Of a stretch of DNA of 34,458 bases, positions 2,585-34,458 are shown piece by piece. Source of the DNA: a virus; IMG/VR virus record IMGVR_UViG_3300044995_000220. One strand, written 5' to 3'. Positions within the stretch are counted from its first letter, which is position 1. Every line of letters begins with the position of its first letter. The notes beneath the pieces are model-generated. The model did not search any database. It was not told the DNA's origin and saw only the letters and a list, made by a program, of their open reading frames with translations. Position numbers and translations under genes: made by a program.

Positions 2585-3759
2585 TAGCGACTCACAGGAA
2601 GGGGCATACGTGACTGATTTTGGTCGATTGGAGTGTAATTGAGCGTCTCGGGCTGAGAGGAGTAAACCGAAGCTTCAGGGGGCTGAGGATCGCGCAACGG
2701 TACACGAACTGTGCTACTTTGAGCGAGTCCAGGAATGCCGTTTATAACTGACTCAACGTACGACTGATTTAACGAAGGATCGTTAGGATCCAAACGCCGC
2801 AACAATGGCGGTACTGAAGCCAGTGGATCGGAACTAACAGCAGCCTGATTGACACGTGGGTCCACTGTACGGTCCGGTACTGGCGTAACCTCTTCAGTGT
2901 CAGGTGGGATACGTCCTGCTATAGCAATACGTGCACCGGAATTGCGCGGGCGTCCATCATACGGAATCGCATTTGGATCGGCAGCAAACGGCGTAAAGAC
3001 ACGAGTAGGTACCCACCCAATAGTGTAATTTACGAAATCAATGCGCTTGACCAATAACTGAAACGCAAATGGAACATATATTTCAGACGCTGCATTTAGT
3101 GTGAAACTCACACCAATCATCGCGCCGGTAATTACATACGAATCAATCTTCAAATTGATAATCTTTTGTCGACGCGCGAGCTGCGTACCACGCAGAATCT
3201 CTAAATAAAGACGTAGAAAATTAGTTGTTTGATCATCCTGCACAGTATTTAGCAACCACCCCGTAAACGACCAAACCGGAGGTTGTTGCCCAAAGAAAAA
3301 TGCAACATAGTTATCAGCAAGTGTGTCCTTAATATCGACCTTTTCCTGAAGCGGCATCGACGCTTGTGAAATGAAAAAATCAAGATACCCATTCGTCGCA
3401 AATGTCTGATTAGCGCGGACATGCGAATCCTGCGCACCCGCTCCACCGCGTGTACGATTACGTTGACGCTGCGTCGGATCACCAGCAATACGCGGAGCAA
3501 GCTGTTGCTGCGTATGTACATCCGCGATCGACGCAAGAAAAAGGTTCATCTCTGACGCATCAACACGAACAAAAATACGCGCAAGTGTATTGCGAAACAG
3601 GTCGCTACGAAAACCACGATTAACAGCATATTTTGGCGTAAAGCCTTGAAGGTACTCAGCAAACACACCGCCCGCACCGCGGGACGGTGAATACGATGTA
3701 CCACCCCTGCTACCTGAAGACGGAGGGCGATCACGACCAGGAGCGTAGATAGTAGTCAT
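2584..3759 (-). CDS. Putative tail-tube initiator / baseplate protein (391 aa)
   Basis: Two genes after the tape measure. Central beta-rich domain (YVAFFFGQQPPVWSFTGWLLN...PFAFQLLVK) and Pro-rich tail. Function inferred from synteny. Confidence 0.5.
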   Translation of the reverse strand: MTTIYAPGRDRPPSSGSRGGTSYSPSRGAGGVFAEYLQGFTPKYAVNRGFRSDLFRNTLARIFVRVDASEMNLFLASIADVHTQQQLAPRIAGDPTQRQRNRTRGGAGAQDSHVRANQTFATNGYLDFFISQASMPLQEKVDIKDTLADNYVAFFFGQQPPVWSFTGWLLNTVQDDQTTNFLRLYLEILRGTQLARRQKIINLKIDSYVITGAMIGVSFTLNAASEIYVPFAFQLLVKRIDFVNYTIGWVPTRVFTPFAADPNAIPYDGRPRNSGARIAIAGRIPPDTEEVTPVPDRTVDPRVNQAAVSSDPLASVPPLLRRLDPNDPSLNQSYVESVINGIPGLAQSSTVRVPLRDPQPPEASVYSSQPETLNYTPIDQNQSRMPLPVSR

Positions 3760-8871: not shown

Positions 8872-8951
8872 TTTGTCTAACTCCTTTACCTAATAATGGT
8901 ATATAGATATAAATCGTACCAAGTTTGTATGTAACCGGGGAGAAGCCCAAG

Positions 8952-11027
8952 ATGGCAGCAACTGATTGGTTGAACAACCCTCAAGCCGGCGTCGTACGCA
9001 CAGTCCGTCCAGGACAAATCACAATGACGCGCCTCGTAGAAGAGATTTTGACAAGCGAAGCAGGAGGTATCGCGTTTCTAGAAGCCGGCACCGGAACAGG
9101 CAAAAGCTTCGCATATCTAATCCCTACTCTGTTAAGCAACAAGCGCGTAGTCATCTCAACCGCAAAGAAAACGCTTCAAACTCAGCTCATAGAAAAAGAT
9201 CTGCCATTTCTTACCAGCAAGATCAAGCCCACAACATACGCTTTGCTAAAAGGCAAAAACAACTACGCTTGCATGCTCCGTTTCAAGGAGTTGATCACAA
9301 CCGACGCATACAAACAGTTACCGCAGTATGAGCGCAACACCATCGAAGAGTGGATAGAGCAAAGCGCAGCTAACGATCTCTCAGAACTGAGCCCACCATT
9401 CACATTAGAAAATCTTATACGCGTCGCTGAGTGTGTACGTAAAAGTTGCCCATACGCTGAAAACGCGTGCGGCTATATCGCTGCACGAGATGCTGCGCTT
9501 AATGCTCAAATTGTCGTCGTAAACCACGCACTCCTTGCTTATGATCTTTCGGTTGGTGGTGGCAAAATCCTTGGCAAATACGACGCACTAGTAATCGACG
9601 AAGCGCATCAAGCACCAAAATATTTTCGCGAAGCAGTCTCACTAAAACTGCATCACAAACACCCTGAAATGCTCCGGCGTTTGTTCAACGGCACTGAATA
9701 TGAACCGCACGAAATCCTCGACAACATCTATAACACAATTTTTACAAAGGTGCCGGTAAAGAACGATAAGCTCAATTTAACTCCTGAGTTAATACAGGTA
9801 TTTGAAGATTTACACGAAGAACTTGAACGCATCTACGAAAGGTTGGCTATAAAAGGATTACTTAATGAAGACGACGCAGCCGACACAACAGACAGCATTA
9901 TAGCGACAGCACGCGCAAAACTTAAAGCTGGTGCAGTACTAATCGAAAAATGCCGCAAACTCGTCAAGATTGTGCTTGGGAAGCATGTAATACGTAACGA
10001 AGAAGGCGATATCATCGACGGCGATGAAACCGACTACTTATGCTACGTTGAGAAACGCGGTCGTAGCGAAGTACCAGAAATTGTCGTCACACCAATTGAA
10101 ATAGGACCGATAATTGCACCCGCGCTCATTGGAATTAAGCGAGTCGTTATAACGAGCGCGACTCTCGCAACAGCTAACGGAATGGACTACATGGCCCGTG
10201 AATACGGTCTTCATGCTAGTCAAATCACCATCAAAACTACACTGCCATCTCCATTTGATTACAAATCTCGCTCAACAGCGTACATTTCACCTACGGCACC
10301 AGATCCTTCGTCTCGCGGAGACGAATACTACGCGGCCCTGAGCAGCGAAATCCACGAACTACTCGTCGCGTCACGAGGAGGCGCATTTGTACTTTGCGCA
10401 TCTTACGACGACATGAATAACCTAGCAGATGGATGCCGTGAGCTGTTACGCCAAGAACCAAAAAACGGAACAACACCATACATTATTGCAACACAAACAA
10501 GCTCTCCCGAATCGATGTTAGAGTGGTTTCGTAAAACACCGCGAGGAGCGCTATTTGCAGTGAAAACATTTTGGGAGGGCGTCGACCAACCAGGTCTTGC
10601 TCTACGTCTAGTCATCATTCCTCGACTACCGTTCCCAAACGCAAGTGACGTCGTACTACAAGCGCGCAAAGAAGCAGTTGTTGAACATCTCATAGAGCAA
10701 GGCTATGAACAGGGCCGTGCTCAGATCCAAACATGGGAAGACTTCGATTTACAAGAAGCAATCATGGATCTGAAACAAGGTGCTGGTCGCCTAATCCGCA
10801 CTGAGACAGATATGGGTGTCGTCGCCCTGCTTGACAAACGCGCTTACAGGAATACCAAAAAATACTCTAGTAAGGTGCGCAACGCCTTACCAATGCCCAC
10901 AACCTACGAAAAAGACAAAGTGCTCCGCTTTCTCACAATGCTTGCCGATAAAGTAACGCCTGAGAACACAACTTCCTCTACGATCGTACCCATCGTAAAG
11001 AAACGTGATTATCCTAACGCATTGTAA
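8952..11027 (+). CDS. dinG: DinG/YoaA-family SF2 DNA helicase with Fe-S cluster
   Basis: RPGQ Q-motif, EAGTGTGKS, STAKKTLQTQL, KGKNNYAC plus ECVRKSCPY..ACGY cysteines, VVNHALL, DEAHQ, TSATL, FWEGVD, RLPF, QGAGRLIR. ATG 8952 preferred (GGAG upstream). Confidence 0.93.
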   Translation: MAATDWLNNPQAGVVRTVRPGQITMTRLVEEILTSEAGGIAFLEAGTGTGKSFAYLIPTLLSNKRVVISTAKKTLQTQLIEKDLPFLTSKIKPTTYALLKGKNNYACMLRFKELITTDAYKQLPQYERNTIEEWIEQSAANDLSELSPPFTLENLIRVAECVRKSCPYAENACGYIAARDAALNAQIVVVNHALLAYDLSVGGGKILGKYDALVIDEAHQAPKYFREAVSLKLHHKHPEMLRRLFNGTEYEPHEILDNIYNTIFTKVPVKNDKLNLTPELIQVFEDLHEELERIYERLAIKGLLNEDDAADTTDSIIATARAKLKAGAVLIEKCRKLVKIVLGKHVIRNEEGDIIDGDETDYLCYVEKRGRSEVPEIVVTPIEIGPIIAPALIGIKRVVITSATLATANGMDYMAREYGLHASQITIKTTLPSPFDYKSRSTAYISPTAPDPSSRGDEYYAALSSEIHELLVASRGGAFVLCASYDDMNNLADGCRELLRQEPKNGTTPYIIATQTSSPESMLEWFRKTPRGALFAVKTFWEGVDQPGLALRLVIIPRLPFPNASDVVLQARKEAVVEHLIEQGYEQGRAQIQTWEDFDLQEAIMDLKQGAGRLIRTETDMGVVALLDKRAYRNTKKYSSKVRNALPMPTTYEKDKVLRFLTMLADKVTPENTTSSTIVPIVKKRDYPNAL

Positions 11028-17897: not shown

Positions 17898-19394
17898 ATG
17901 GTCTGGAGTCGTTACCAAGAAGATATTTTTCGCTTCGGCGAAAAAGAGCGTGGTCACCTCGTAGTCATCGCACGCGCCGGATGCGGTAAAACAACTACAA
18001 TCAAAGAACTATGCCGACGCTTGTCGCGTTCACGCATCCTCGTTTGCGCATTCAATAACAAAATCCGTGACGAACTATCGCAAAAGCTACAAAACTTGCG
18101 CCACGTACAAGTCAAAGGTCTGAATCAAATTGGCTTTGGCGCAATGATACGTTTTCGGGGACAAAAACTAAAAGTCGATCGCTACAGGATACGCGACTTC
18201 GTCCGACGATTGATCCCAGATGAATACAAAGAAGCACGCAGTGACGTAATAAAACTCGTCACAATGTGCATGGCAAATCTTGCAGTAGATGCCGAAAGCA
18301 TCATGCAAACTATGTATTACTATGACCTGCGCCCAGTAGATCCAAAACAAGAAGATCTGTATCGCAAGTGGACAGAAGCAACGCTAGCTTTTTCAGAACG
18401 TCCGTCACTGACGATCAGCTTCGACGAACAAGTCTATCTGCCCGCACGATTCAATCTCACTACTGGCTCATACGACATCGTTATCGTCGACGAAGCGCAA
18501 GATCTCAACGCATGCCAATATCGCATCGTTATGAACGCCGTAAAGCCCGCGACCGGACGGATATTTGCTGTCGGCGATGATCGTCAAGCGATCTACGCTT
18601 TCCGAGGCGCAGACGCAAACGCGCTGGCAAAATTTCAAGCGGACCTCAACGCTACCGTGCTGCCACTATCGGTAACGTACCGATGCCCTCGTGCAGTCGT
18701 CAACCTCGCACGGCGCATCGTGAACGACTTCGAAGCAGCACCCAACGCAATCGAAGGTACTGTAGCATGTGTATCTGAAAAAGAATTCCTAACAAAAGTT
18801 ACTGAAGGCGACGCAGTAATCAGTCGTACCAACGCAGCACTTTCGAAATATTGCATGCTCTTATTAGGAAAAGGTCGCCGCGCCCGCATTATCGGACGCG
18901 ATCTTAACTCCAAACTCGATGCACTATTAGCCCGCACACGCACTAACAACGTGCGGGTCGCTCTCGAAGAGCTAAGTGAATACGTAGCCGAAGAATCTGA
19001 CCGCTTGATCGCAGCGGGCAAAGACGACAAAGCTGAAGAACTAAAAGACAATTTAGAAGCGCTACGAGCTATCAGTGAAGACACTAACAGCGTCGAAACA
19101 CTACGTCGTAAAGTTGCAGAACTATTTGATGACGACGAAAGCGTCGCTGACAAAGGGATTATTCCCTTCATGACAGTCCACAAAGCAAAAGGCCTTGAAT
19201 TCGAACGCGTGTGGATGTTTGAATCCACATTCCGTGTGGACTCTACCGAAGGTGAAAATCTATATTATGTAGCCGTAACACGCGCACAACGAGAACTATA
19301 TCTCGTACAAATTCCGCGTTCAGACGGCGTAGTTCCAAAGAGCATCGCGTTAGAGCAACTCAAAGCGTTCGAAAAAGACGCAGTGATAAAGTAA
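17898..19394 (+). CDS. UvrD/Rep-like SF1 DNA helicase (498 aa)
   Basis: ARAGCGKTT, AFN, VDEAQD, VGDDRQAIYAFRGA, YRCP, SRTN, TVHKAKGLEF, YVAVTRA. Confidence 0.93.
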   Translation: MVWSRYQEDIFRFGEKERGHLVVIARAGCGKTTTIKELCRRLSRSRILVCAFNNKIRDELSQKLQNLRHVQVKGLNQIGFGAMIRFRGQKLKVDRYRIRDFVRRLIPDEYKEARSDVIKLVTMCMANLAVDAESIMQTMYYYDLRPVDPKQEDLYRKWTEATLAFSERPSLTISFDEQVYLPARFNLTTGSYDIVIVDEAQDLNACQYRIVMNAVKPATGRIFAVGDDRQAIYAFRGADANALAKFQADLNATVLPLSVTYRCPRAVVNLARRIVNDFEAAPNAIEGTVACVSEKEFLTKVTEGDAVISRTNAALSKYCMLLLGKGRRARIIGRDLNSKLDALLARTRTNNVRVALEELSEYVAEESDRLIAAGKDDKAEELKDNLEALRAISEDTNSVETLRRKVAELFDDDESVADKGIIPFMTVHKAKGLEFERVWMFESTFRVDSTEGENLYYVAVTRAQRELYLVQIPRSDGVVPKSIALEQLKAFEKDAVIK

Positions 19395-23469: not shown

Positions 23470-24324
23470 ATGAAAAGCATCACATACCCCACTATCAAAG
23501 CTCCTAACGGAGTGCGTTACTCAACCGCACCGAGCGTGTCCATGATCGCTGAAACACGCGTCAACGTTGAGGAAATAAAACCTTTTCTCAACGACTATGG
23601 TTTCGACGCTTACTACGAAGAATCAGTAGACGCGCTAGAACGAAGCTTAATCAGCGATGGAGGTTTGCTGTCAAAATTCTCCGGCCAGATCTGCTACCTC
23701 TCGCTAGGCCAACTACACACCCCGCACGCTGAAGCTGACAAATACTTCACGCGCATCATGACACAAGGTCATGGTTCCATTTTAGAACACGCAAACTACA
23801 CATTCTTAATATGGGGTGTCGATCGCGCCGTCACTCACGAGATTGTACGGCACCGCGCTGGCATGGCCTACTCACAAGTATCTCAACGCTACGTAGGCGA
23901 AGATAAGCTGCGCTTCTGTTTACCGTACGACATTCAGAACGATCCAGAACTTGTCCATGACGCCCTAGAGGACATGGCGTACGACCTATACCGCTATAGG
24001 CGCTGGATTGAAGCATACCAAACCAAGTACCCTCAGCTAGACGGAGAATCAAATACGGAGTGGCGAAAGCGACTCCTAAGTGCGGCGCGCCGTGTGCTGC
24101 CTAACTGGGTCGAAGCACCGATCGTGATCACAGGCAACGTTCGCGCATGGCGCCACGTGCTCTTCATGCGCTGCGCAAAATCCGCAGACGTAGCAATACG
24201 TCGCGCAATGGTGCCAGTGCTCAAGGTGCTTCAGAACACCGTGCCAGAACTGTTTGCAGACTTCTCATTTGAAACGCTGCAAGACGGAAGCACCAGCGCT
24301 ACGTCGAAGTACATCAAAGTCTAA
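23470..24324 (+). CDS. thyX: Flavin-dependent thymidylate synthase
   Basis: GHGSILEH, RAVTHEIVRHR-x7-SQVSQRY ThyX motif, AARRVLPN, TGNVRAWRH. Confidence 0.96.
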   Translation: MKSITYPTIKAPNGVRYSTAPSVSMIAETRVNVEEIKPFLNDYGFDAYYEESVDALERSLISDGGLLSKFSGQICYLSLGQLHTPHAEADKYFTRIMTQGHGSILEHANYTFLIWGVDRAVTHEIVRHRAGMAYSQVSQRYVGEDKLRFCLPYDIQNDPELVHDALEDMAYDLYRYRRWIEAYQTKYPQLDGESNTEWRKRLLSAARRVLPNWVEAPIVITGNVRAWRHVLFMRCAKSADVAIRRAMVPVLKVLQNTVPELFADFSFETLQDGSTSATSKYIKV

Positions 24325-29009: not shown

Positions 29010-29681
29010 ATGGTGCGTGTTATGAGCACTATCGCGAAAGTTCAACATATTTACCGCCACTGCCAAGGCGGTGAATACATCGTCGAACAAATTGCTCACG
29101 ATAGCTCCAACCCTCCACAAGAAGTCGTCGTCTACCGAGAAGTACACGGATCCAAAGTCTGGGTTCGACCACGAACCGAATTCGAAGGGATGCACCCTTC
29201 TGGAGTGCCTCTCTTTGAACTGATATCGGCACTAACCCGACTTGAATGGACCGAGTATTTCATAGATATAACGCACCTAATCGCACAACGCGCAACATGC
29301 GACCGCAAACGCGTTGGCGCAGTGTTCGTGAAAGATAACCGAATCATCGCCACAGGATACAACGGATCCCCTCCAGGACTCCCGCACTGCGATGAAGTAG
29401 GTCACGACATCATAATCACTGACGGCCGCGAAAACTGCGTGCGCACTGTGCACGCCGAACAAAATGGCATCTACCAAGCCGCACAGTACGGTGCGACCTT
29501 AGTAGATACCGTAGTGTACGTCAACACTTTCCCCTGTTGGAATTGTGCCAAAGCGTTGTTGTCAGTGCGCGTCGCCAAGATCATCTACGACGCTGACTAC
29601 AACAACGACTCACGCGTATTTGACGCCTTCAACCGAGCTGGCGTGCCGCTGGAAAAATTCGTTCGAGAGTCTGTCAAATAA
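29010..29681 (+). CDS. DUF1653 domain fused to dCMP deaminase (ComEB-like)
   Basis: YRHCQGGEY...VVVYR...WVRPRTEF (DUF1653 pattern); RATCDRKRVGAV, TGYNG, HAEQN, PCWNC (deaminase). Start may be 29022. Confidence 0.9.
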   Translation: MVRVMSTIAKVQHIYRHCQGGEYIVEQIAHDSSNPPQEVVVYREVHGSKVWVRPRTEFEGMHPSGVPLFELISALTRLEWTEYFIDITHLIAQRATCDRKRVGAVFVKDNRIIATGYNGSPPGLPHCDEVGHDIIITDGRENCVRTVHAEQNGIYQAAQYGATLVDTVVYVNTFPCWNCAKALLSVRVAKIIYDADYNNDSRVFDAFNRAGVPLEKFVRESVK

Positions 29682-30687: not shown

Positions 30688-31113
30688 TTACGACGTAAAG
30701 GCATACGAGAGAGGTCTACCCGCTGAGTGCAGAGCCGAGAGGCGCCCAGCCAAGGCATTGATTCCCTCGCGTGTAGAAAGGAGCTTTTTAGCATCCTGTC
30801 GCCCAGTAAACCCGCCGTACACTCCACCGCTAAGAGCGCCAAGAAGCGCGCCGCGAAGCGCCATATTTTCTTCCTCTCCAGGGTGCGCGAGCAACATACC
30901 GCCCGCACCGCCAATCAAACCTCCATAAAGCGCACCACGTAGACCTTGATCAATTGCGTGCGTGTACGTAAGCGCACGCGCAGGATTTTTGTGAGCAAGA
31001 TCTCCAAAACGGCGCAGAACACCGCTAAGAAATGCGCGCTTGGTCAAGGACGGCCGAAGTCTGCTTGCAAGGTCCACAGAAATACCTGCATGTTTTGTTC
31101 GATAATGAAACAT
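30688..31113 (-). CDS. Glycine-zipper membrane-type protein (141 aa)
   Basis: GALYGGLIGGAGG and GALLGALSGGVYGG; ATG 31113 chosen because the longer start lies in the tandem repeat. Confidence 0.65.
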   Translation of the reverse strand: MFHYRTKHAGISVDLASRLRPSLTKRAFLSGVLRRFGDLAHKNPARALTYTHAIDQGLRGALYGGLIGGAGGMLLAHPGEEENMALRGALLGALSGGVYGGFTGRQDAKKLLSTREGINALAGRLSALHSAGRPLSYAFTS

Positions 31114-31219
31114 AACAACTAAAATATTATGCCGATCGCAACAAGGGGATGCAAGACCCCGAAGATTTGATGCGCTCGGCACAGGGGGGCGCAAACATCG
31201 CGAGGTTTTGCTAAGCAGC

Positions 31220-31285
31220 GCGCTCATAAGGCGCTCATAAGGCGCTCATAAGGCGCTCATAAGGCGCTCATAAGGCGCTCATAAG
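31220..31285. repeat. Tandem repeat (GCGCTCATAAG)x6
   Basis: Six perfect 11-bp units running into the first array unit. Confidence 0.95.
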
Positions 31286-31476
31286 GCGCTCAAACGCCGC
31301 GGGGCTTAGCTAAGCAACGCGCACACGAAAAGGCCGCTCAAACGCCGCTGGGCTTGGCTAAGCAGCGTGCGCACACAAGGAGGGGCGCTCAAACGCCGCT
31401 GGGCTTGGCTAAGCGACGCGCGCAAATGCGAGGAAGGGCGCTCAAACGCCGCTGGGCTTTGCTAAGCGACGCGCGC
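31285..31476. repeat. Left array: 4 units with core CTCAAACGCCGCNGGGCTTNGCTAAGC
   Basis: Cores start at 31289, 31337, 31388, 31441; degenerate fifth unit near 31190-31216. Confidence 0.9.
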
Positions 31477-31480
31477 TAGA

Positions 31481-31558
31481 CACAAAACGGCGTAAAAGTC
31501 AAGAGGGTTTTGTTTAGTGGCGCGGGCCAAGCACAAAACAGTGTAAAAGTCAAGAGGG
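31481..31558. repeat. Two 27-bp direct repeats containing TTGACT on the minus strand
   Basis: 31481-31507 and 31532-31558, 25/27 identical, 51-bp period. Confidence 0.85.
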
Positions 31559-31728
31559 GGTTAGACGATTTTTTGGCGAGCCCGCTGTCGAACTCCGGAA
31601 GAGGGATTGGCAAATGAAGGCCTCTAGCAGGCGTTACAAGCGGCTCAAGGCCCAGCTGGCTACCCCCCCTAGCTTGAGGGGGTATAAAAAGCCCGGAAGG
31701 GCCCTTCCCGTTCGTTGGCGCCCGGGTT

Positions 31729-32124
31729 TCAACGTAACGTGTCCCAGTCGATCCCCGGTGGTTCTGAGAAGACATTGGGTTGGGTGTCAGGGCTGCTGGG
31801 AGGAAGGCCGAAACCCTGGGCAGCGCGAGCGCGTGCGCGTGCGTCTGGGTCAGTAGCAAGGCGCGCGGCGTCGATCTGCTCGCTTGCGGAAGCCATTCCA
31901 GGCGCGATTGGGTCTTCATGGGGGAGCAAGCCTTGGGCGCGGAACTCAGCCTCCCACTGAGCGCACAGCACCATCAACGCTTCGGCTGCGAGCTTGTTAG
32001 GCCGATTCGGGTCGCTTGTGAGGCGCCCTTGGTGCGCGGCGAGCTTTAGCACGCGCTCCAGGCGCACCAGCTTGGTGTACGGGATCGAGAGCGAGAAGGG
32101 GATTGCGCGGTCTTTGATCAGCAT
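31729..32124 (-). CDS. Putative ribbon-helix-helix DNA-binding protein (131 aa)
   Basis: GAGGTG SD and TATAAT upstream; IPFSLSIP strand, YTKLVRLERVLKLAA helix, NKLAAEALMVL helix, then a Pro/Ala-rich tail. Confidence 0.5.
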   Translation of the reverse strand: MLIKDRAIPFSLSIPYTKLVRLERVLKLAAHQGRLTSDPNRPNKLAAEALMVLCAQWEAEFRAQGLLPHEDPIAPGMASASEQIDAARLATDPDARARARAAQGFGLPPSSPDTQPNVFSEPPGIDWDTLR

Positions 32125-32148
32125 CGTGAGCACCTCGTGCGCCGTTCA

Positions 32149-32556
32149 TTATAAATCGAAAGTGGTTATTTTCGACTAATCGAAAATAAAAATAGGTCAG
32201 GCATACACATGCGGGTGTGCGCGTGCGCGCACGCGCGTGCGCGACGGGTGTGTGCACGCGCCCGCATGAGTATGCATGTATGTGTTTGTCATACATTTAC
32301 CTACATTTCTCGCGAGTGACGTATATATAGTTTTTGGTGGGGAAAAGAGAGAGGGAGAGATTGAACGCGATTGCAAAAAATATTCCTGCCAAATTTCCGT
32401 GTGATTTCAACATGTTAGGCGTATTCCGCCATGACTTTGGGGGGGCGCTCGCGCTCGCGCGCGCGCACGCGTACGCGCATGCGTACGCGCACGCACATAC
32501 ACATCTGGTCTATTTTTATTTTCGATTAGTGGCAAATAACCACTTTCGAATTATAA
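32149..32556. repeat. 52-bp AT-rich inverted repeats flanking a 304-bp core
   Basis: 32149-32200 versus 32505-32556, 47/52 identical. Confidence 0.92.
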
Positions 32557-32846
32557 AGAAAAAATGTGTCAATCTGTGCCAATTTGCTGGAATTTTTGTG
32601 CAGTTGTGCGCCATAAAGCAGCGATGTCTGTGTAGTACGATGTGCGTAATGTAATCGATTTAGATTACAATAAGTTATTGTCCTACACAGTGTGAAATGT
32701 ACGGATAATGTGTGTTAGGGTATTGTTTATGCACATATGTAGAAATTGTACGATATGGTAAGAAAGATAAGTTACAGTGTGTGAATAGGAGGTTATATCT
32801 GTTTTGTCAAGACATAAGATTACAATTAGAACAAAGTAGACAATAT

Positions 32847-33034
32847 CATACACTAACTGACATTGTGGTTAGCGCTCCCTGTTTAGTACACAACATACAC
32901 TAATTGACATTGTGGTTAGCGCTCCCTGTTTAGTACACAACATACACTAACTGACATTGTGGTTAGTCCTCCCTGCTTAGTACACAACACACACTAACTG
33001 ACATTGTGGACATCACTCTCTGTTTAGCCCACAA
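32847..33034. repeat. 4 x 47-bp tandem repeat (iteron-like)
   Basis: catacactaactgacattgtggttagcgctccctgtttagtacacaa at 32847, 32894, 32941, 32988; last copy diverged. Confidence 0.95.
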
Positions 33035-33065
33035 CGCGCGCAAAGTGCGCGCTTTGCGCAACGTC

Positions 33066-33327
33066 AAGCCCGTCGGCGTTTGAGACCTTGACGCACGCTG
33101 CGCACGTCGTACGGCGTAAAGCCCGTCGGCGTTTGAGACTCCCTTCTTACTCTTTGTCGTGCTCTCAATGGGGAATGGCGCGCGTTGAGCGCGCTGCGCA
33201 ACGGCAAGCCCGTCGGCGTTTGAGACCTTACAGGTATGCGTTGCGCACGTTGCGCACGTTGCGCACGTTGCGAACGTTGCGCGCGCTGTGCGCGCTGTGC
33301 AACGGCAAGCTCGTCGGCGTTTGAGAC
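33066..33327. repeat. Right array: 4 x AAGCYCGTCGGCGTTTGAGAC, the inverted counterpart of the left array
   Basis: Copies at 33066, 33119, 33206, 33307; a 9-bp tandem (CGTTGCGCA)x~5 lies at 33239-33283. Confidence 0.9.
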
Positions 33328-33389
33328 CCTGCTAAGAGTGCATTGTGAGCGACAAGGTATGGGTTGTTTTTAAGTCCAGCGTATTTTCA

Positions 33390-33416
33390 TAAATTGCTTG
33401 GGGAAACTGGTACAAG
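33390..33416 (+). promoter_or_regulatory. Putative phage promoter TAAA-N15-GGTACAAG (copy 4)
   Basis: Exact motif, then a hairpin and AAGGAGG. Confidence 0.65.
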
Positions 33417-33458
33417 TTTGCGGAGCCGCGTGCTGTGGGCTCCAAAAGGAGGTTTTTT

Positions 33459-33767
33459 ATGCGATCGACGGGTCGAATTCGAGCTCTAGCGCGGTATTAC
33501 AAATTGATTACTGCGTTGGAGCAGGAGCTACAACGCTCCTTTAGAGCAGAAGCTGTTAGCCTCGATGAAATCGTTCGCAACGTGCGCGCTGCTTACGATG
33601 CGCACGTTGCGCATGCTTTGTACGACTCAAAGTCTTCTACACGGCTTGCGTTGCTTTACTTGGCTGTGCAAGCCGGGGGTTTTGCAGTGAAGATAGATAG
33701 AAATATCGACGTGGCGCGCAATGTGCGCGCCCTTCATGCCACTTTAAACCAGGTGGTGGCAATATGA
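33459..33767 (+). CDS. Hypothetical protein (102 aa)
   Basis: AAGGAGG SD before ATG 33459. Confidence 0.7.
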   Translation: MRSTGRIRALARYYKLITALEQELQRSFRAEAVSLDEIVRNVRAAYDAHVAHALYDSKSSTRLALLYLAVQAGGFAVKIDRNIDVARNVRALHATLNQVVAI

Positions 33768-34045
33768 AAACAGACCCACGTTTTGTCGCTCTTGGAGCGG
33801 CGCTTAGGTCTGTGTCACGTAAGCGTCTTGTTCGCCGTGACGATGTGCTTGTTGTGCGCTCTGGACGCCTACGTTGTGAAGCGTATATTGATCTTCTCGA
33901 TCGTGAGACACCTATTACGATCGAGGTTGAAGGGGGGTTATTTCCGATACGGATATATGCGCGAGACGTGGGCGCTGCACTAGCGGCGCTCAAACGATAT
34001 GGCAGAGAGCGGGAGGAGCTTCGACAGCTCTTTTCGCTCTCATAA
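33764..34045 (+). CDS. Hypothetical protein (93 aa)
   Basis: ATGA-coupled; terminator follows. Confidence 0.7.
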   Translation: MKTDPRFVALGAALRSVSRKRLVRRDDVLVVRSGRLRCEAYIDLLDRETPITIEVEGGLFPIRIYARDVGAALAALKRYGREREELRQLFSLS

Positions 34046-34084: not shown

Positions 34085-34142
34085 GGTTTCTAATCTTCTA
34101 AAGGGAGGGGTATTCTAGAGGGGTTTAGAGGGGGGTATTTTA

Positions 34143-34209: not shown

Positions 34210-34353
34210 ATGAAGGTCAAGAAGGGCAAGAAGGTCAAGAAGGTCAAGAAGGTAAGCTTCTGCCGGATTATGACTGCTTCAGGTTTTGGCGCCTTTGTAG
34301 GCGCCATTGCCTGGGAAGGGTTCAAGGTGATGGCTCAGGCTATTAGAGCCTGA
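34210..34353 (+). CDS. 47-aa cationic/hydrophobic peptide, missing from ORF track
   Basis: AAGGAGG SD; MKVKKGKKVKKVKKVSFCRIMTASGFGAFVGAIAWEGFKVMAQAIRA*; own promoter and terminator. Confidence 0.8.
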   Translation: MKVKKGKKVKKVKKVSFCRIMTASGFGAFVGAIAWEGFKVMAQAIRA

Positions 34354-34356
34354 GCC

Positions 34357-34380: not shown

Positions 34381-34458
34381 GTGTTTTTTTTAGCTAATAT
34401 ATTTTGTTAGGAGTTTAGAGGGGTTTTGGAGGGGGTATTCTGGAGGGTTTTAGAGGGG

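Follow-up and report, generated by a model that had tools for sequence, protein, structure and literature searches.

What is the role of a stretch of about 2 kb of phage DNA that is nearly free of genes and filled with repeats in mirror order? Such a locus lies at positions 31190-33330 of a DNA sequence of 34,458 nucleotides, hereafter the window, which is the minus strand of bases 34-34491 of IMG/VR record IMGVR_UViG_3300044995_000220. The record is from an uncultured hot-spring phage, and its contig of 123,104 bp is classed as linear. All positions given below are window positions. CheckV estimates the completeness of the contig at 71%, and the absences of genes that we report are therefore provisional. 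A preliminary description, made from the sequence without database searches, saw in this locus a multi-protein DNA platform, such as a bidirectional origin or partition centre, or joined genome ends carrying packaging or recombination sites. Comparison with related loci confirms that the module is real, non-random, and partly conserved, and it may well serve as a platform for DNA-binding proteins, possibly an origin, whereas the readings as partition centre, genome ends, and recombination sites are not supported. We favor, with a probability of about 0.5, its identification as an autoregulated divergent-promoter control hub for early genes, built around a gene for a protein that resembles ribbon-helix-helix (RHH) regulators.

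Twin promoter-like cassettes around a conserved centre

We compared the window with six loci from viral and metagenome contigs of uncultured phages (L032 to L037). L032 belongs to the same phage (97% identity). Protein identity is 77% for L033, 68% for L034, 51% for L036, and 45% for L035, and L037 is a more distant, longer form. In every relative an inverted repeat stands directly upstream of the RHH-like gene (in L037 it is visible by eye). The 52-bp inverted repeats reported initially in the window are part of this structure, whose actual extent is larger: its arms are 99 nt long and 76% complementary (Table 1). The arms of L033-L036 measure 75-91 nt and are 254-277 nt apart, and those of L034, L035, and L036 are 95% complementary.

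In the window, the proximal arm, next to the RHH-like gene, carries a promoter-like sequence that has 10 of the 12 bases of the sigma-70 consensus. Its -35 element is covered by a perfect 20-bp palindrome, ATTTTCGA-CTAA-TCGAAAAT (32168-32187), and a GC/GT alternating tract occupies the inner end of the arm. When the arms of different lineages are aligned in the outward direction, they have in common a -10 element T(A/G)TAA(T/A), an AATTAC word, TCGAA at -35, and an upstream box CCCGCAT(A/G)GGTAG. Since the arms align at these points, we regard them as twin outward promoter cassettes. In all lineages, the genes past the distal arm are oriented outward.

Five lineages have a homologous segment between the arms, with the shared words TTGCAAT, (CT)7-8, ATATACGT, and ATGTAGGT. 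The conserved words of the window are TTGCAAT (32370-32376, minus strand), (GA)n/(CT)n (32345-32361), GTGACGTATATATA (32316-32329), and ACCTACAT (32299-32306), and the centre also bears alternating purine-pyrimidine and ATATA tracts. With respect to the RHH-like gene, it points the same way in 7 of the 7 loci. In the high-GC relatives, the GC content over 100 nt is lowest in the centre and arms of each locus. The IHF-like site initially noted in this segment is as frequent as expected by chance (the window has 33 matches, for 30.4 expected) and is not conserved in the relatives. A pattern scan for the centre matched one other contig, L039 (IMGVR_UViG_3300020186_000064), where TTGCAAT precedes long (CT)n runs at 3214-3452, in an intergenic position amid GAGGTTGTCC repeats and an inverted copy. 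This contig has no RHH-like homologue and no twin arms, and was rejected as a further relative.

A putative regulator of probable ribbon-helix-helix type

The gene downstream of the proximal arm is preceded by a ribosome-binding site in all lineages. Its product is probably RHH-like, on weak but concordant evidence from structural models. The RHH domain consists of an N-terminal beta-strand and two helices (around 45-50 aa) and pairs as a dimer. In the AlphaFold2 (AF2) monomer, residues 5-14 are extended and helices span 16-31 and 42-64, with a predicted local distance difference test (pLDDT) score of 80-90 in this N-terminal part and of 69 for the model. When the model was compared with 48,161 chains using VIA-align, the top rows included many RHH proteins at Z scores of at most 4.2, among them the ParB of pCXC100 (top row, Z 4.2), TacA, MazE6, NikR, ParD2, PutA, and Arc. 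Among the named Atlas clusters, MetJ, CB_ParB_C, and RHH_6 come nearest (scores of 0.86-0.87, to be taken as leads only). The 12 members of the family have no match in Pfam and PHROG at E-values up to 10. A profile search of the PDB with the protein gave nothing relevant, and Foldseek with its model gave nothing significant against the same database.

The family is very rare. A word-indexed search resulted in 12 proteins, and an exhaustive search of 1.84 billion cluster representatives in 8 relatives, two of which are long repetitive proteins. An identical protein is also encoded on a 133-kb contig, and no relatives were found in cultured phages or in bacterial and archaeal genomes. The alignment of the family reveals conserved blocks at the N-terminus (DRA(I/V)PF(S/T)LS...RPNKLAAE), further on (RLATDPDARARARAxGF), and at the C-terminus (EPPGxDW), and an Arg-rich tail that is also conserved. 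A 147-aa open reading frame (ORF) at 31476-31919 on the minus strand, which overlaps the gene out of frame and runs through non-coding repeats, was discarded as a shadow ORF.

Mirrored arrays as a lineage-specific amplification

The left array is as first described, with four copies of CTCAAACGCCGC(T/G)GGGCTT starting at 31289, 31337, 31388, and 31441 (spacing of 48, 51, and 53). Four reverse-complement copies on the right start at 33066, 33119, 33206, and 33307 (spacing of 53, 87, and 101). Three of them have the reported 17 of 19 positions identical to the left consensus, but the outermost one has 16. A search of the whole contig allowing up to 4 mismatches revealed no copies of this 19-mer besides these 4+4. 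The micro-tandems of the outermost spacers are also present, with 6.6 units of an 11-mer on the left and 4.9 units of a 9-mer on the right. Both micro-tandems arose by slippage from parts of the 19-mer unit: the 11-mer array derives from its outer end (TTATGAGCGCC vs GTTTGAGCGCC), and the 9-mer corresponds, in reverse complement, to the word adjoining the right-hand motif copies. A CRISPR-like array was rejected, because the units have 39 nt and the gaps just 9-14 nt. The two 27-bp repeats of the preliminary description were found at 31478-31555, and correspond to two copies of what we call the two-block word.

The relatives tell which parts of this arrangement are old. In five lineages, the RHH-like gene is followed downstream by the two-block word TTGAC-N9-RTTYTRTG, then by the motif AAGCC(C)NNCGGCGYYTGAG, and then by the gene of a glycine-zipper membrane protein. 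In L033, L034, L035, and L036, the distance from the word to the motif is 21-28 nt; the terminator-like hairpin that precedes the word was scanned for in the window only. The motif reads outward in every case and its number varies: one copy in L034, L035, and L036, two in L033 with one more far on the other side, 4(5)+4 in the window, and 5+4 in L032. Since it is single-copy and one-sided in three relatives, the mirror symmetry is a lineage-specific amplification. To judge from these alignments, the 19-mer is an old single-copy element that was copied to the other side and amplified in the lineage of the window and L032. Window and L032 differ by whole units in the 11-mer/19-mer and 9-mer arrays and have zero substitutions across 31853-33029. 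L032 carries an extra intact motif unit in the 11-mer spacer and has one 9-mer unit fewer.

The two sides of the locus also differ in gene content. The conserved side has the membrane-protein gene and two further genes, and the other side is variable. The matches of the membrane protein to Pfam Gly-zipper families are weak and under the curated cut-offs, and in L035 and L036 homologues of its gene are found on the downstream side of the RHH-like gene. The listed ORF of 179 aa (30688-31227) is too long, since the alignment with the relatives sets the start at 31113. No ribosome-binding site was seen before this gene in any lineage. Since the ATG is preceded, at 9-13 nt, by a conserved -10-like word, GGCRTAWK, the leader of the mRNA may be very short or absent. 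On the variable side, the window contains the AT-rich stretch and the four 47-bp repeats described initially, both of which were confirmed, and then the right array. The AT-rich stretch, with a GC content of 0.30, exceeds every other 200-bp window of the contig in AT content. L033-L036 lack both the 47-mers and the long AT-rich tract and hold genes there: two to ten genes separate the distal arm from the homologues of the first rightward genes of the window, which are found 2-6.8 kb from the arm, behind these extra genes. The first two 47-mers read (C/T)TGAC-N19-GTTTAGTA and match the outward two-block word, except that their spacer is longer by exactly 10 bp. This raises the possibility that the whole unit of word and motif was copied across in inverted orientation, which we treat as tentative since the match was noticed post hoc. 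A search for a gene remnant in the AT-rich and 47-mer stretch with tblastn gave just low-complexity matches in GC-rich repeats, and this option was abandoned.

We searched for the 19-mer elsewhere. At least 120 matches were found in bacterial genomes, which is around the chance level for 17 fixed bases in 596 Gb. Some of these are intragenic (e.g., two code for a VSNAGGL-type stretch) and a few are in unrelated repeat families. The match in L061, a hot-spring Fervidibacter genome bin, was dismissed as it has nothing else in common with the locus. The word was never beside a 16S gene in the 80 bacterial loci that have it, and an Rfam search with the 19-mer matched no family. An apparently unrelated contig of 208.9 kb, L018 (IMGVR_UViG_3300027573_000779), has six dispersed same-strand copies of a ATGCTCAAACGCCGCAGGGCTT-like word (at 248, 3035, 5362, 5892, 6078, and 12057), some with perfect AAGCC/GGCTT stems. 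These copies form an intergenic repeat family of this giant-phage contig itself, which we judged unrelated.

A proposed divergent-promoter control hub

These elements could work together in the following way. The RHH-type protein would be made from one of the two near-identical outward cassettes around the conserved centre of 220-280 bp. Almost all RHH regulators repress their own promoter. By analogy, this protein would most likely repress its own promoter via the palindrome over the -35 element, as well as the twin promoter. Leftward transcription of the regulator and then of the membrane protein would in this way be coordinated with that of the variable small early or accessory genes on the right. 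A second cis unit, made of the two-block word and the oriented motif, would head the membrane-protein gene and, in the window, also the rightward genes, where it is multiplied. We propose that an inverted copy of this unit came to head the rightward genes, and that tandem duplication and slippage followed on both sides. Such copying and amplification suggests that the arrays are multiplied regulatory sites, acting on DNA or on leader RNA. The sequences show the anatomy of the locus, the extent of its conservation, the promoter-like elements, and the history of amplification, and we infer repression by the RHH-like protein, the activity of the promoters, and what might bind the motif. A toxin-antitoxin pair made of an RHH antitoxin and a membrane toxin was considered and rejected: the two genes are 230-615 nt apart, and a terminator-like hairpin and separate conserved upstream words lie between them.

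Several observations weigh against a control hub. The hub is read from sequence, with transcription and binding as predictions. The evidence on the regulator includes the lack of Pfam and PHROG matches, the low Z scores, and the pLDDT of 69 given above. The two-block word has no recognisable -10 element, which makes its role as a promoter doubtful. The terminator-like hairpin between the RHH-like gene and the left array implies that this array is not simply part of the RHH transcript, and folding of the arrays as RNA gave no significant or consistent motif hairpin (z of -2.0 to +1.3). A hub also leaves unexplained around 900 nt of AT-rich and repeated DNA in the rightward leader, as well as the conservation of the centre, which has neither promoter nor ORF.

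Surroundings of the locus

The locus sits 1.1-3.4 kb from the near end of the contig and, over around 2 kb, is nearly gene-free. No ORF-free gap of the contig is longer than the one at 32655-33434. On the left is a plus-strand block of replication and nucleotide-metabolism genes, and on the right are small genes with no assigned function (Table 1). A family-A DNA polymerase is encoded elsewhere on the contig, as is a terminase-like ORF (C1:55754-56209), around 52 kb from the locus. In four lineages, the neighbours comprise a Gly-zipper protein, a SLOG/YpsA-like protein, and proteins without assigned function. The 2.3-kb region had no match in phage and plasmid collections in a DNA search, no tRNA was found in the locus, and Rfam gave just sub-threshold miRNA-type noise on its GC/GT tracts. 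In the GC skew analysis suggested in the preliminary description, skew tracks the coding strand, with no flip across the locus in L035, and is therefore uninformative on an origin. The tetranucleotide GATC does not occur in 32117-33400 (1.28 kb), for a window mean of 4.7 per kb and around 6 expected.

Table 1. Coordinates of the features of the locus and its surroundings in the window
Feature	Position	Strand	Remarks
DinG-like helicase	8925-11027	+	
UvrD-like helicase	17898-19394	+	
ThyX	23470-24324	+	
dCMP deaminase	29010-29681	+	
Glycine-zipper membrane protein gene, 141 aa (MFHYR...)	30688-31113	-	Start by alignment with MSHYR/MNHYR of the relatives
Degenerate fifth (outermost) left unit	31185-31223	-	74-77% identity to the other units
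11-mer micro-tandem (GCGCTCATAAG), x6.6	31220-31292		Between the outermost intact left copy and the degenerate fifth
Left array	31289-31459	-	4 motif copies, outward reading AAGCCC(A/C)GCGGCGTTTGAG; 39-nt units, 48-53-nt period
Two-block word TTGAC-N9-GTTTTGTG, 2 copies	31481-31502, 31532-31553	-	27-bp repeats of the preliminary description
Terminator-like hairpin and T-run	31694-31710	-	Directly after the stop codon of the RHH-like gene
RHH-like gene, 131 aa	31729-32124	-	GAGGTG ribosome-binding site 6 nt before ATG
Proximal arm	32145-32243	-	Leftward promoter-like TCGAAA-N16-TATAAT (32175-32148)
Central segment	32244-32461		Homologous in 5 lineages (alignment)
Distal arm	32462-32560	+	Rightward promoter-like copy GTGGCA-N18-TATAAA, -10 at 32553-32558
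AT-rich tract	32647-32846		One DnaA-box-like word (TTATGCACA, 32727), two AGATTACAAT words
4x47-bp tandem	32847-33035	+	Directly abuts the AT-rich tract
Right array	33066-33325	+	4 copies AAGC(C/T)CGTCGGCGTTTGAG; GC-rich hairpin word before each
9-mer micro-tandem (CGTTGCGCA), x4.9	33239-33282		
First two rightward genes	33459-34045	+	102 aa and 93 aa

The first rightward gene (33459-33767) is conserved in L033, L035, and L036. The nearest Atlas structure rows of its 102-aa product include a T5-type small-terminase cluster, with template modelling (TM) scores of 0.60/0.72, from a poor model (pLDDT 0.59). A terminator-like hairpin follows each of the rightward small genes. At the right end, a G-rich word (GGGGTATTCTAGAGGGGTTTAGAGGGG) heads each small gene, at 34105-34139 and at 34414-34458, where it runs on to the contig end. 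Window and L032 are colinear up to 34215 and then have different small genes between the same G-rich head and terminator (L032:1-480), and the right-end small genes look like exchangeable early-gene cassettes. A gene at 34211-34354 encodes a Lys-rich hydrophobic peptide of 47 aa (MKVKKGKKVKKVKKVSF...) and is built on a 9-nt repeat (GAAGGTCAA, x4.7), with a good ribosome-binding site and a strong terminator-like hairpin after it.

Resemblance to known control regions and origins

The preliminary description did not recognise the architecture and considered it a candidate for an undescribed system. We find precedents in autoregulated divergent-promoter regions, in origins made of repeats and AT-rich DNA, and in multi-repeat non-coding origin regions. 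In the immunity region of lambda, cI lies between the divergent pL and pR, with nutL and nutR mirrored around them, and the immI region of P22 encodes Arc and Mnt, which are repressors of RHH type. Such repressors are known to act on divergent phage promoters. The locus is like these regions in that a small gene for a putative repressor lies at predicted divergent early promoters with a shared operator logic and, as in lambda, a short oriented element occurs in both outward leaders. In contrast to them, it has long near-identical cassettes around a conserved centre, and its oriented element forms tandem arrays of 4(5)+4 copies in this lineage only. In sequence, the locus is not related to cI, Cro, N, Arc, or Mnt, and it matches neither boxA nor boxB.

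Other precedents concern replication. Origins activated by transcription include T4 ori(uvsY) and ori(34), the primary origin of T7, and the lambda origin with pR; the latter has four iterons beside an AT-rich tract. The locus has the same succession of a promoter, here predicted, and an AT-rich element, but its AT-rich tract and 47-mers are lineage-specific. The PLE satellite of Vibrio cholerae has a non-coding region of 2.7 kb, with four repeat families between divergent operons, which holds the origin (PMC7145576). It shares with our locus a non-coding region of around 2-2.7 kb, unrelated repeat families (only one family is an iteron in PLE), and divergent blocks. Unlike PLE, which has an adjacent gene for a RepA_N initiator, the locus has no recognisable initiator. 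In SaPI origins, opposed sets of iterons stand on either side of an AT-rich region (PMC9371898), and the criterion used for SaPI and PICI is that of at least two short iterons per side, in opposite directions, immediately 3' of the rep (helicase) gene (PMC9371898). Two opposed sets of short repeats also flank an AT-rich region in the window. Yet SaPI iterons have 5-6 nt in a compact origin just after rep, whereas 1.6 kb, with a gene and two promoters, separates the arrays of the window, and no Rep helicase gene is adjacent. The locus therefore does not have the layout of a SaPI/PICI origin, and its relatives L034-L036 hold one motif copy on one side.

Repeats on both sides of a gene are also found in plasmids: 19-bp repeats flank the gene in oriR/incA of P1 and in ori2/incC of mini-F. 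In parC-ParR of R1, two repeat sets flank the promoter of an RHH protein with a disordered tail (PMC2241845). Like these systems, the locus has two separate repeat sets around the promoter or gene of a small DNA-binding protein. In contrast to them, no ParM, ParA, or Rep-type initiator was found, the period is around 50 nt rather than 11 or 22, and the arrays are not conserved.

Alternative explanations

The module might be, or also hold, a transcription-activated replication origin, where either the AT-rich tract beside the 47-mers melts or the AT-rich centre, which divergent transcription from the outward promoters would underwind, and the 19-mers serve as auxiliary sites of an origin-binding protein. 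We consider this possible but doubtful. It would account for the position of the most AT-rich 200 bp of the contig beside the 47-bp repeats, around 90 nt downstream of a promoter-like arm, and for the longest ORF-free gap being in a module that borders the replication and nucleotide block (DinG-like, UvrD-like, ThyX, dCMP deaminase) of a phage with its own family-A DNA polymerase. It is also in line with the low GC of centre and arms in the high-GC relatives, with the (CT)n, alternating purine-pyrimidine, and ATATA tracts of the centre, and with the PLE and SaPI precedents (PMC7145576, PMC9371898). However, L033-L036 have genes in place of the 47-mers and the long AT-rich tract, and no initiator-like gene (Rep, O, or RepA-type) was found among the neighbours searched, where the sole adjacent DNA-binding candidate is the RHH-like protein. 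The single and one-sided 19-mer of three relatives is not a conserved iteron set, skew follows the coding strand with no flip in L035, there is just one DnaA-box-like word, and other stretches of the contig are AT-rich to a like depth. Of the traits of iteron origins, tandem repeats beside an AT-rich element are present, and an adjacent initiator gene and positional conservation are missing, with just centre and arms conserved. Since the origin-like parts are not conserved, an ancestral origin, if there is one here, would have to be the conserved centre. A bolder version, which strikes us as improbable, takes the conserved core as a new kind of start site for replication and transcription. The twin cassettes would be kept alike by concerted evolution around a centre of fixed orientation, divergent transcription would open this centre, and the RHH-like protein, with its ParR-like tail, would build with a reader of the motif a mirrored platform that gates early transcription and origin firing. 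It is also rather unlikely that the motif acts in RNA, as a hairpin with a single-stranded tail in both outward leaders that gives a nut- or rrn-like antitermination, stability, or processing signal. The motif does always read with outward transcription, its variable centre with a 1-nt indel would be better tolerated by a loop than by a duplex site, G.U pairing is retained through three C-to-T changes but solely on the outward strand, and terminator-like hairpins follow the rightward small genes. In lambda, nutL and nutR are mirrored around the repressor gene. The rrn leaders in B. subtilis offer a further likeness, opening with a small hairpin and, right after it, a boxA-like ...CUUUGAAA (PMC13753749). 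On the other hand, the arrays have no significant or consistent hairpin when folded, no compensatory double change was seen, and one pair is broken in L036. The absence of an Rfam match and of 16S genes beside the word in the bacterial loci argues in the same direction, the tail GCGYUUGAG is only loosely like the published boxA words, and the left motif array comes after, not before, the terminator-like hairpin.

The readings of the preliminary description fare less well. A centromere-like partition site, whose arrays would be coated by the RHH-like protein, with its ParR-like disordered tail, and handed to an NTPase, is very unlikely. The top structural row is indeed the RHH centromere-binding ParB of pCXC100 (Z 4.2), CB_ParB_C is among the nearest Atlas clusters, the Arg-rich tail is conserved, and repeat sets lie on either side of the promoter of the regulator, as in parC-ParR of R1 (PMC2241845). 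Yet the contig has no match to ParA/CbiA (PF01656), no NTPase family was found among the neighbours searched in four lineages, most of which lack any Pfam match, and most relatives lack the arrays. No integrase and no sign of lysogeny or of a plasmid was found, and no relative was found in bacterial genomes. The 19-mer arrays and the promoter palindrome share no word. We give as little credit to a region where packaging starts or the genome ends (pac/cos, or joined terminal repeats) and to which a small terminase would bind. The position of the locus 1.1-3.4 kb from a contig end in two assemblies, the density of repeats, and the weak small-terminase likeness of the first rightward gene (TM 0.60/0.72, low-confidence model) would fit such a region. 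Against this, the terminase-like ORF is around 52 kb away, and the homologous locus is in the middle of the 23-kb contig L035 and at the opposite side of the contig in L033. Moreover, the contig of the window ends inside the repeated G-rich word and L032 stops just after the terminator of a cassette, where the next such word is expected. As both ends fall at positions of G-rich words or cassettes, they look like ordinary assembly breaks. An invertible promoter switch, where the arms are recombination sites and the centre flips, would be in line with an inverted repeat of 75-99 nt that brackets a segment of 218-277 nt, with arms 95% alike within L034, L035, and L036. This we find hardly credible: the centre has a single orientation in all seven loci, no serine or tyrosine recombinase was found in the contig (no match to PF00239 and PF00589), and a flip of the centre would not redirect the promoters, which are in the arms and face outward.

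Implications for uncultured phages

Since no protein signature marks them, hardly any control regions and origins are known from large uncultured phages. The divergent-promoter hub that we propose gives a conserved and testable cis grammar, made of twin cassettes, a centre of fixed orientation, a two-block word, and an oriented motif, and ties it to a very rare protein family. The locus also shows that a single regulatory site can be copied across a promoter hub and amplified to mirror arrays, which calls for caution before such symmetry is taken for an ancestral design. Should the motif act in RNA, a new leader element would have been found. If the locus holds an origin, it would provide a handle for the construction of replicons and reporters for phages of hot-spring mat bacteria.

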